Of a DNA stretch of 64,000 nt, positions 14,936 to 20,506 are shown one piece after another. The notes beneath the pieces are model-generated. The model did no database searches, was not told the DNA's origin, and was given only the letters and a program-made list of their open reading frames with translations. Location: NCBI RefSeq assembly GCF_054482525.1, contig NZ_CM137006.1; one strand, given 5' to 3'. The translations under genes and the position numbers were made by a program. The stretch's first letter is position 1. Every line of letters begins with the position of its first letter.

Positions 14936-15145
14936 GTAATTTAACGAATTTAACTTTTCAGTACATCACGTAAAATAATTAAAACATCTTTTTTCTTTGG
15001 AGGTACTCAGCCACCGCCGTTATTAATCCTGGTTTAGCAATTCCACGGCGAATTCATTATTTCTGGTCATATTATAGTCAGGATCGCATTATATCTCCGT
15101 GCTAGAAAAAACAAGTTTAATTCTGTTTTTTCACGGAAGGTCACT

Positions 15146-18100
15146 ATGTCTTCAACAAATGCGCATCAAATAAAAAATAATATTCAAAATTCTTTATGTG
15201 GTCTGGGTGACAAAATACGCCGCCTGACCGCCGGAGTTTGTTTATTTACACAAATTTTTTTCCCCGTCATGGCGACGGCACAAAATGTGGTACACGCTAA
15301 ACCTCAGACGACAGTTTCATCTGCCCCCCCTCTAATAGAAAATAATACTGTGCCTTACACGCTTGGAGCGCTGGAATCAGCGCAAAGCGTTGCTGATCGC
15401 TTCGGTATTTCACTGGAGGAGCTTCGTCGTCTTAATCAGTTCCGTACTTTTGCTCGCGGCTTTGATAACGTGCGCCAGGGTGAAGAGCTGGATGTTCCGG
15501 CAACAACCTTGCAGAAAAGTCATGAGCAACAAAATGCCGTACCGCCTGCGAATGGCGAAAATACGCTGGAGAATCAAATAGCCAGCACTTCGCAGCGAGT
15601 TGGCACTCTGCTTTCACAAGATATGAATAGTGAGCAGGCCAGCGGCATGGCGCGTGGTTGGGCGTCTTCAGAAGCCTCAGGCGCGATGACTGATTGGTTA
15701 AATAACTTTGGCACTGCGAAAATCTCTCTGGGTGTGGATGAAGATTTCAGCCTGAAAAATTCGCAATTCGACTTCCTGCATCCGTGGTATGACACACCCG
15801 ATTCTCTGCTCTTCAGCCAGCATACCCTTCACCGAACAGACGATCGTACCCAGATCAACACCGGTTTGGGCTGGCGTCATTTCACCCCCAGCTGGATGTC
15901 AGGCATCAACCTGTTTTTTGACCACGACCTGAGCCGCTATCACTCCCGCGCGGGGCTTGGCGCAGAATACTGGCGTGATTATCTGAAGTTAAGCAGCAAC
16001 GCTTATATCGGCCTGACCGGCTGGCGTAGCGCACCAGAATTGGATAATGACTACGAAGCCCGCCCGGCCAACGGCTGGGATTTACGCGCGGAAGGCTGGT
16101 TACCAGCCTGGCCACAACTGGGTGGAAAACTGGTCTATGAACAATACTATGGTGATGAAGTGGCGCTGTTTGACAAGAATGATCGCCAAAGTAATCCCCA
16201 TGCTATTACCGCGGGCCTCAACTATACCCCCTTCCCGCTTCTGACTCTCAGTGCAGAACAGCGTCAGGGGAAGCAAGGTGAAAATGACACACGTTTTGCC
16301 GTTGATCTGACCTGGCAACCCAGCAGTTCAATGCAGAAACAGCTTAACCCGGACGAAGTGGCCGGACGGCGCAGTCTGGCCGGTAATCGTTATGACCTGA
16401 TTGATCGCAACAACAACATCGTTCTGGAATATCGCAAGAAAGAGCTGATTCGCCTGAGTCTGCTGGATCCGGTGAAAGGAAAGTCTGGAGAAATAAAACC
16501 GCTGGTTTCCTCGATACAGACCAAATATGCCCTGAAAGGCTATAACATCGAAGCCGCTGCGCTGGAAGCTGCCGGAGGTAAAGTCAGCACGTCTGGAAAA
16601 GATATCACGGTCACGCTGCCAGGTTATCGCTTCACTAACACTCCAGAAACCGATAATACATGGTCGATAGACGTTACCGCCGAGGATGTAAAAGGGAACC
16701 TGTCACGGCATGAACAAAGCATGGTCGTCATTCAGGCTCCGACATTAAGCCAGAAAGATTCTCTGTTATCCGTTAATCCGCTAACCGTAGCTGCAGATAA
16801 AAAATCGACGACCACATTGACCGTTACTGCGCACGATTCCGACGGAACTCCGGTGCCGGGGCTGGCGCTGCAAACCCGCAGTGAAGGCGTTCAGGATATC
16901 ACCCTGTCTGACTGGACAGATAACGGTGATGGTAGTTACACACAGATGCTGACCGCCGGAACGACATCAGGTTCAGTAACACTGACGCCGCAAATTAACG
17001 GTGAGAGTGCGGTAAAAGAATCCATCGTCGTTAATATCGTCCCTGTTGTCTCATCCCGCGACCATTCATCAATAACAATAGATAACGTATCGTATTATGC
17101 CGGAGACGACATCAAGGTTAGGGTGGAACTGAAAGACGACAGCAATCAACCGGTTGCTTATCAAAAAGAAGAATTGGTAAAAGCCGTTACTGTCGAAAAC
17201 AGCAAACCTGGAGCCACGATTGTCTGGAACGAAGAACAGCCGGGCGTTTATGCCGCGAATTATCCGGCCCATAAGCAAGGAACAGCACTAAGGGCACAAC
17301 TTAGCCTTCACAACTGGAATGCTCCACTGCAATCGCATATTTATAACATTGAGGCAAACCAGAATAAGGCTCGCGTCGCCACATTATCAGCGACAAATAA
17401 TGACGTTTACGCCGATAAAAAGACATTTAATACCCTCACTATCAACGTCACTGATGAGAGTGATAATCCCCTGACAAATCATCAGGTCACCTTTAAGAAT
17501 GAAAAAGGAAGCGCGGAATTTGTCGAACCGCCGCAGCAAAATACGGATGCATACGGTGTTGCCACAATCAACATGGTAAGTCAGGTTGCGGAAGAAAATA
17601 CGATTAGCGCCACGCTGCCAAATGGTTTCTCACAACGGATAATTGCGAAATTCGTTAGCGATTCGAGTACGCCAAAATTCAAACAACTGGTTGCCGATCC
17701 AGATACCATTATTGCTGGCAACAGCCAGGGCAGTACTCTGACCGCCACCGTCACAGACTTTCATAACAACCCATTAAAAGATATGAAAGTGAATTTTGTG
17801 GCACCTGGTGGTTCGCAACTGGACAACACGACCGCCACAACAGACCAGTCCGGTATTGTGCGAGTGCACCTGACCAGTTCAAAAGCTGGTAGCTATTCCG
17901 TCGATGCCTCGCTTGAGGCGGATAAAAATATTCACCAGTCGGTCACGATCACCGTGGTCCCAAACAGGGAACAATCGGTAATGACCTTAAATGCCGGGTC
18001 GGGCAGTGCGATCGCTAACAATACAAATACCGTTATCCTGACAGCCAGTGTGAAAGATGTTTACGGACACCCGTTGCCGGATGAGGATGTGAAATTTACC

Positions 18101-20454: not shown

Positions 20455-20483
20455 GCCTGATGCGCTGCGCTTATCAGGCCTAT
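20455..20483. repeat. REP element
   Basis: gcctgatgcgctgcgcttatcaggcctat matches the REP consensus; lies between the adhesin gene and kptA. Confidence 0.55.
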
Positions 20484-20506
20484 ATAACCCCTGCAATATA
20501 TTGAAT

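Follow-up and report, generated by a model that had tools for sequence, protein, structure and literature searches.

The large gene situated between yjiJ and kptA in the window analysed here, which is a 64,000-nucleotide stretch of contig NZ_CM137006.1 (NCBI RefSeq assembly GCF_054482525.1), is almost certainly iatD, encoding a known type Ve (inverse autotransporter) adhesin of Escherichia coli for which a mechanism of secretion and display can be proposed. The gene is a single long open reading frame (ORF) on the plus strand (15146..20386) with an ATG start, encoding 1746 amino acids (aa) plus a stop codon, and is preceded by a Shine-Dalgarno sequence (GGAAGG, 15135-15140) 5 nt 5' of the start. 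The original prediction, made from the sequence alone, had described a 5.2-kb gene for a 1746-aa protein, with which this ORF agrees exactly, and had called the product a large intimin/invasin-type inverse autotransporter adhesin, which is borne out by DNA matches, by Pfam and by models of the barrel and tip. The name iatD was missed in that reading. The feature is nevertheless not new and must count as already known, because iatD was named and characterised in 2019 (PMC6714894) and the gene is annotated by RefSeq.

Megablast of window positions 14700-20700 against 5,426 complete E. coli genomes gave 100% identity across 6,001 bases to strains PCN033, SCU-102 and 19KM1776, to which the first 25 kb of the window is 99.9-100% identical, so that the window derives from a PCN033-like strain. 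PCN033 is a porcine extraintestinal pathogenic E. coli (ExPEC) of serogroup O11 and phylogroup D (PMC4578781). All of the full-length matches listed are annotated as "iatD: inverse autotransporter IatD", with yjiJ and kptA as flanking genes. The exact 1746-aa protein is already public as AKK51324.1 and other records, on 222 contigs, and is named IatD (NCBI, UniRef). The allele present here is the PCN033-type (WP_000099600.1 / AKK51324.1). The corresponding 90%-identity protein cluster has 1,685 members, 13 of the 15 listed being exactly 1746 aa long. The protein is placed in the IatD orthologue group by the yjiJ-kptA locus, shared by every iatD-annotated genome listed, by the length of ~1746 aa, by high sequence identity and by its database name.

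The genes iatA to iatD were named by Goh et al. 2019 (mSphere 4:e00572-19; PMC6714894), who identified iatD as EcSMS35_4876 in strain SMS-3-5 (5,241 bp). Complete copies were present in 7 of their 126 genomes and in 10% of the ECOR strains; alleles were >98% identical in amino-acid sequence, and each inverse autotransporter gene kept a conserved place in the chromosome. The published domain plan of IatD comprises LysM, beta-barrel, Big1 repeats and a C-type lectin cap. When overexpressed in K-12, SMS-3-5 IatD was detected on the cell surface by immunofluorescence and raised biofilm formation (PMC6714894).

The protein encoded in the window is a member of the intimin/invasin family of inverse autotransporters, every sequence and fold feature tested having been found (coordinates of all protein features refer to the plus strand). 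It begins with a long N-terminal signal peptide (~aa 1-45, 15146..15280), which on reading the sequence consists of basic residues (K23/R25/R26) followed by the hydrophobic core LTAGVCLFTQIFFPVMATA at aa 27-45 and then by ATA and Q. An AlphaFold model of aa 1-440, made from an alignment of 43 sequences, places a helix at aa 22-49, and the sequence and this helix together indicate the N-terminal Sec signal peptide used in type Ve secretion. The signal peptide is followed by a periplasmic LysM domain (aa 68-118, 15347..15499), of a kind carried by the large members of the family, accepted as divergent and presumed to bind peptidoglycan. This acceptance, despite a sub-threshold Pfam score for IatD itself, was based on matches in the homologue family (19 of 43 aligned homologues at E<=0.001, 31 of 43 at E<=0.1), on a PDB sequence match to the bacterial LysM structure 4uz2 (E 0.009) and on the beta-alpha-alpha-beta LysM topology of the model, in which the predicted local distance difference test score (pLDDT) of this region is in the mid-80s. 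The same three lines of evidence uphold the LysM domain of the original prediction, as a divergent one.

The inverse-autotransporter beta-domain (aa 148-423, 15587..16414) is spanned by Pfam IAT_beta (PF11924) with an E-value of 1e-108, and PDB sequence search of the barrel returned Yersinia invasin (4e1t, E 1.5e-80) and intimin (4e1s, E 5.9e-67). The model shows a barrel of 12 strands between aa 190 and 390 with pLDDT of ~90-97, superposing on 4E1T with a target TM-score of 0.97, a root-mean-square deviation (rmsd) of 1.1 A and 51% identity, and on intimin 4E1S with a TM-score of 0.97 and 46% identity. The barrel translocator expected by the original prediction is thus present on profile search.

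Beyond the barrel lies the passenger stalk (aa 440-1546, 16463..19783), delimited by Pfam, PDB search and a repeat hidden Markov model (HMM), which contains nine clear Big_1/Invasin_D3 domains and two divergent Ig-like stretches. The nine domains significant in Pfam are at aa 537-631, 745-836, 847-938, 946-1041, 1052-1134, ~1150-1238, 1244-1333, 1346-1436 and 1443-1536; an HMM made from IatD's own repeats recovers all nine and gives a weak signal also at aa 643-712. The two further stretches, aa 440-536 and aa 632-744, probably represent Ig-like domains that have diverged. The first of them corresponds to the region reached by the NCBIfam intimin model, up to model position 549, and its intimin counterpart is presumably the D00 Ig-like domain. 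The stalk is followed by an Ig-like domain of the Invasin-D4 type (~aa 1547-1637, 19784..20056), recognised by Pfam Invasin_D4 (aa 1564-1624), by the model and by a match to invasin 1CWV. The passenger therefore comprises about 12 Ig-like domains (nine clear Big_1 and around three divergent) plus a lectin-like cap. Of the "at least ten Ig-like (Big_1)" repeats originally predicted, ten or more is acceptable for Ig-like domains in general, whereas strictly only nine are Big_1.

The C-terminus forms a C-type-lectin-like tip (~aa 1639-1746, 20060..20383), identified from the 1CWV alignment, a structural model and a family alignment. A Pfam scan of the IatD C-terminus gave no C-type lectin match. 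The last 210 aa align to domains D4-D5 of invasin 1CWV (E 2e-5). A first homologue search with this 210-aa tip returned two fragments, the index appearing for this family to return proteins of <= ~770 aa, and an exhaustive search of representative proteins returned 271 relatives. The tip model, built from an alignment of 36 relatives, has a pLDDT of 96 and its best structural match is invasin 1CWV (query TM-score 0.80, rmsd 2.6 A), followed by intimin 1F00 and then by snake-venom C-type lectin-like proteins. Mature IatD contains only two cysteines, C1660 and C1742, both in the tip; in the family alignment C1742 (C206 there) is invariant and C1660 (C124 there) nearly invariant. They stand where the invasin D5 cysteines (C907 and C982 in invasin numbering) would be expected. 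The model, 1CWV, 1F00 and the family alignment together identify the cap as the C-type-lectin-like one of the intimin/invasin subgroup, with a conserved cysteine pair; the lectin-like domain originally predicted is in this way upheld by sequence match to 1CWV and by structure comparison, not by Pfam.

According to these models, all the protein parts of type Ve secretion are present, in the inverse order and with high-confidence folds, and a mechanism can be proposed accordingly ordered from N- to C-terminus. The long signal peptide, as read from the sequence, would route IatD through Sec. The divergent LysM, with a fold taken from the model and binding suggested by intimin and YeeJ, would stay in the periplasm and anchor the protein to peptidoglycan, while the modelled 12-stranded barrel would be put into the outer membrane by the beta-barrel assembly machinery (BAM), a step known from the family. 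As in other family members, the C-terminal passenger would then pass outwards through the barrel in hairpin form, and its Ig domains would fold in sequence outside the cell, as they do in intimin, invasin and YeeJ. Profiles and the model predict an extracellular rod of ~12 Ig-like domains ending in an Ig plus C-type-lectin-like superdomain tip like invasin D4-D5. The exposed rod may promote attachment and biofilm, as reported for the overexpressed SMS-3-5 allele (PMC6714894).

Several observations weigh against this reading of the gene and its function. No model specific to IatD was returned by NCBIfam, and each of its nine matches fell under its own cut-off, the best being IatC_Nterm at 1124 bits against a cut-off of 2400; because no NCBIfam model passed, the name IatD comes from RefSeq annotation, from the locus and from sequence identity instead of from an HMM cut-off. 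The LysM domain of IatD itself is under the Pfam threshold (independent E-values of 0.03 and 0.24). Overexpressed IatD caused no autoaggregation and did not bind extracellular-matrix proteins, and all of its phenotypes come from overexpression in K-12 driven by isopropyl beta-D-thiogalactopyranoside (IPTG) (PMC6714894). The region upstream of the gene (14936..15145, 210 bp, plus strand) is AT-rich by composition, its 34% GC being what would fit a gene silenced under laboratory conditions.

The failure to bind extracellular-matrix proteins bears also on a tentative alternative raised by Goh et al. (PMC6714894), in which IatD would be mainly an adhesin or invasin that binds a host receptor (protein or glycan) through its tip, biofilm being a by-product of overexpression. 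This fits the superposition of the tip on invasin D4-D5 and on the intimin C-terminal fragment, the conservation of both tip cysteines and the occurrence of iatD in ExPEC (PCN033, S88) and O157:H7, whereas its occurrence also in soil, sediment and wildlife isolates, and the lack of an apparent Tir-like partner in the annotated neighbourhood, argue against it. Invasin binds beta1-integrins, Asp911 being a key residue, and intimin binds Tir. In the 1CWV alignment Asp911 falls on the Asn of the IatD motif HAKNDG, with an Asp adjacent, and because of this Asn integrin binding by IatD cannot be assumed. A still more speculative possibility, suggested by the tip model, is that the lectin-like tip may recognise a particular ligand, on a host or in the environment, and confer on iatD-positive lineages a tropism for a niche or tissue, with the polymorphism of the locus kept by niche-dependent selection; such tropism would concern some ExPEC, O157:H7 and phylogroups B2/D/E/F.

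The locus itself exists in two states. In the window, iatD is flanked on the left by the core gene yjiJ, encoding a major facilitator superfamily transporter (13757..14935, plus strand), and on the right by the core gene kptA, encoding RNA 2'-phosphotransferase (20507..21091, minus strand), so that iatD and kptA are convergent, with the yjiJ stop at 14935 and the kptA stop codon at 20507. In K-12 MG1655, yjiJ and kptA are themselves convergent (yjiJ ending at 4561497 and kptA at 4561484), separated by 12 bp that hold no gene, confirming the statement in the original prediction that K-12 has no gene here; no identical K-12 gene exists at the locus. Ungapped comparison with MG1655 placed the breakpoints at about 14920 and 20539/20540, within the 3' ends of both flanking genes, and delimits a strain-variable segment of ~5.6 kb (14921..20539) that is replaced by ~30 bp in K-12-type genomes. 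This indel alters the C-termini of both neighbours: the last ~6 codons of yjiJ (14918-14935, plus strand) are unlike K-12 and end LHTNYS in place of LQVVTS, and kptA is 10 residues longer with the iatD allele (20507-20539, minus strand; 194 aa here vs 184 aa in K-12, where the protein ends LEW).

The filled allele (>=80% of the iatD segment at 97-100% DNA identity) was found in 638 of the 5426 complete genomes (11.8%), carriers including O157:H7, S88 and ATCC 11775, and the K-12-type empty junction in 4750 (87.5%), including IAI39. These counts bear out the strain-variable character claimed for the gene and enlarge the published prevalence estimate of 7/126 (PMC6714894). The same filled junctions are shared by phylogroups B2, D, E and F, and each of the two alleles is present in several phylogroups. 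The yjiJ-kptA site has the look of an old polymorphism with two alleles, the gene being present or absent at one fixed position in the chromosome. The position "between yjiJ and kptA" given in the original prediction is correct, but "inserted" is unproven, as the difference may stem from a gain or from ancestral loss; the ~30-bp K-12-specific junction sequence, whose survival as a remnant could have told gain from loss, had no match in the window.

The rarity of iatD, absent from 87.5% of genomes, could also mean that the gene is cryptic, kept silent by H-NS for instance, has little function at present and is slowly being lost as a neutral polymorphism. The AT-rich upstream region with only weak promoter-like matches would suit such a gene, as would the restriction of its phenotypes to IPTG-driven overexpression, many E. 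coli autotransporters being described as unexpressed in laboratory growth (PMC6714894), and iatD is split by insertion sequence IS2 in at least one genome, that of strain N18-04097 (NZ_CP047277.1), an example of natural inactivation. This explanation is unlikely, however, given the ORF kept intact at 1746 aa in 13 of the 15 listed cluster members and the 97-100% DNA identity across phylogroups, with no frameshifts among the matches listed; conservation of an intact 5.2-kb ORF argues for purifying selection.

A recent horizontal insertion of the segment as a mobile islet in the PCN033 lineage, the choice of the original prediction and compatible with its absence from K-12 and most other genomes, is very improbable, as the segment holds only iatD, a hairpin and a repetitive extragenic palindromic (REP) element, with no integrase, transposase or insertion sequence in the annotation (no search was made for boundary repeats, a target-site duplication or a tRNA), the same junctions recur in phylogroups B2, D, E and F at 97-100% identity, the GC content of iatD (48.9%, and 49.3% at third codon positions) lies near the 50.7% average of the PCN033 chromosome (PMC4578781), and the breakpoints cut the 3' ends of both flanking genes, which fits an old indel or a deletion creating new stop codons.

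The Ig domains had been predicted to be recombination-prone, which is not supported because the Ig repeats share no repeats at the DNA level and protein length is nearly invariant among the listed cluster members. The longest exact DNA repeat in iatD is 12 nt, a DNA repeat finder applied to the gene returned only one 25-nt pair of 72% identity, Tandem Repeats Finder (TRF) found nothing in it, and the most alike pair of Ig domains is 47% identical in amino acids. Goh et al. likewise saw the number of repeats in IatD stay the same (PMC6714894).

These results carry little weight as a discovery, the gene, its locus, domain plan, patchy distribution and first phenotype having been published in 2019 and RefSeq naming the gene routinely. 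Besides the larger prevalence estimate, they locate the indel breakpoints exactly, within the 3' ends of yjiJ and kptA, confirm the barrel, LysM and invasin-like tip by structure, and give a clear negative on the idea of Ig-repeat recombination.

The non-coding elements around iatD are asymmetrically placed. The 210-bp upstream region presumably holds the iatD promoter, to judge from its sequence, and contains a weak promoter-like match at 14950-14979. Hairpin search identified in it a perfect 9-bp A/T-rich inverted repeat (GAAAAAACA / TGTTTTTTC, 15105..15132, plus strand) just 5' of the ribosome-binding site, and, 16 nt past the iatD stop, a perfect hairpin with an 11-bp stem and a 6-nt loop (20402..20429, plus strand). 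The latter is plausible as a transcription terminator, although terminator-like only, as no proper T-run follows it and a terminator scan passed it over. Further downstream lies a REP palindrome core (GCCTGATGCGCTGCGCTTATCAGGCCTA, 20455..20482), recognised from its sequence and from matches elsewhere, the surroundings of which (20433-20506) have matches at intergenic sites scattered over other E. coli genomes. The gene had been described as bracketed by a hairpin and a REP element, which failed because the perfect hairpin and the REP are both 3' of iatD; upstream there is only the 9-bp A/T hairpin.

Several other features of the window were observed. A gene for a 775-aa pentapeptide repeat-containing protein (~10264-12591, plus strand), with a very low GC of 31-40%, separates a DUF3343/ytiA-like gene from yjiK; because ytiA and yjiK are adjacent in K-12, it represents a second strain-variable insertion, 2.5 kb from iatD. 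The left end of the window (1-~1366, minus strand) holds the 3' portion of a gene for penicillin G acylase, between yjiA and yjiS, which is not in the K-12 stretch compared, that stretch ending just past yjiS. Low GC (33-35%) at 25000-26000, around iraD, upstream small ORFs and an intergenic region, is probably ordinary. Beyond nanS, the window (~46,000-64,000, corresponding to PCN033 4853600-4872000) contains a defence-type island with a type I restriction-modification system (two hsdM-like genes, hsdS and hsdR), an N-6 DNA methylase with an AAA ATPase, a frameshifted TIR-domain pseudogene, a restriction endonuclease, a 1171-aa AAA-domain protein and an HNH endonuclease.

Compared with known systems, IatD resembles Yersinia pseudotuberculosis invasin (4E1T, 1CWV) at both ends, with a barrel 51% identical and superposing at 1.1 A, a tip TM-score of 0.80, and the last four to five domains of IatD aligning to it in PDB sequence search (E 4e-23). 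Invasin differs in having four Ig-like domains, against ~12 in IatD, the tips are 24% identical and the integrin-binding position Asp911 is not strictly conserved; IatD is not known to bind integrins. Intimin (Eae of enteropathogenic and enterohaemorrhagic E. coli; 4E1S, 1F00) has the same type Ve architecture, with a barrel at TM-score 0.97 and 46% identity and a lectin-like tip, whereas iatD lies outside the locus of enterocyte effacement (LEE), has no Tir partner and encodes a much longer passenger. Identification of the gene as intimin was rejected, as the match to NCBIfam intimin_all reached 360 bits, the cut-off being 1400, and was confined to the barrel region.

Among the E. coli relatives, IatC gives the best NCBIfam match, over IatD aa 14-838, and has the same domain types, but is encoded at another locus and is larger, at 2,459-2,965 aa (PMC6714894); identification as IatC was rejected on the score of Ve_IatC_Nterm (1124 bits against the cut-off of 2400). 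The closest paralogue is YeeJ, with ~77% DNA and 79% protein identity over the signal peptide, LysM and barrel region and a common plan of LysM, barrel, Big_1 and lectin (PMC6714894). YeeJ differs in its chromosomal locus, in its length (2,359 aa in SMS-3-5) and in a passenger that is unalignable to IatD at the DNA level past ~nt 2200 of the query. Identification as YeeJ was likewise rejected, only query nt 409-2204 aligning (1.8 kb, ~77%) and yeeJ being at another locus. The system most like the one described here is IatD of SMS-3-5 (EcSMS35_4876, ACB20062.1), which has the same 5,241 bp, gene name and domain plan (PMC6714894); the two are different alleles, likened through length, name and locus, and E. 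coli alleles of the gene are 97-100% identical in DNA.

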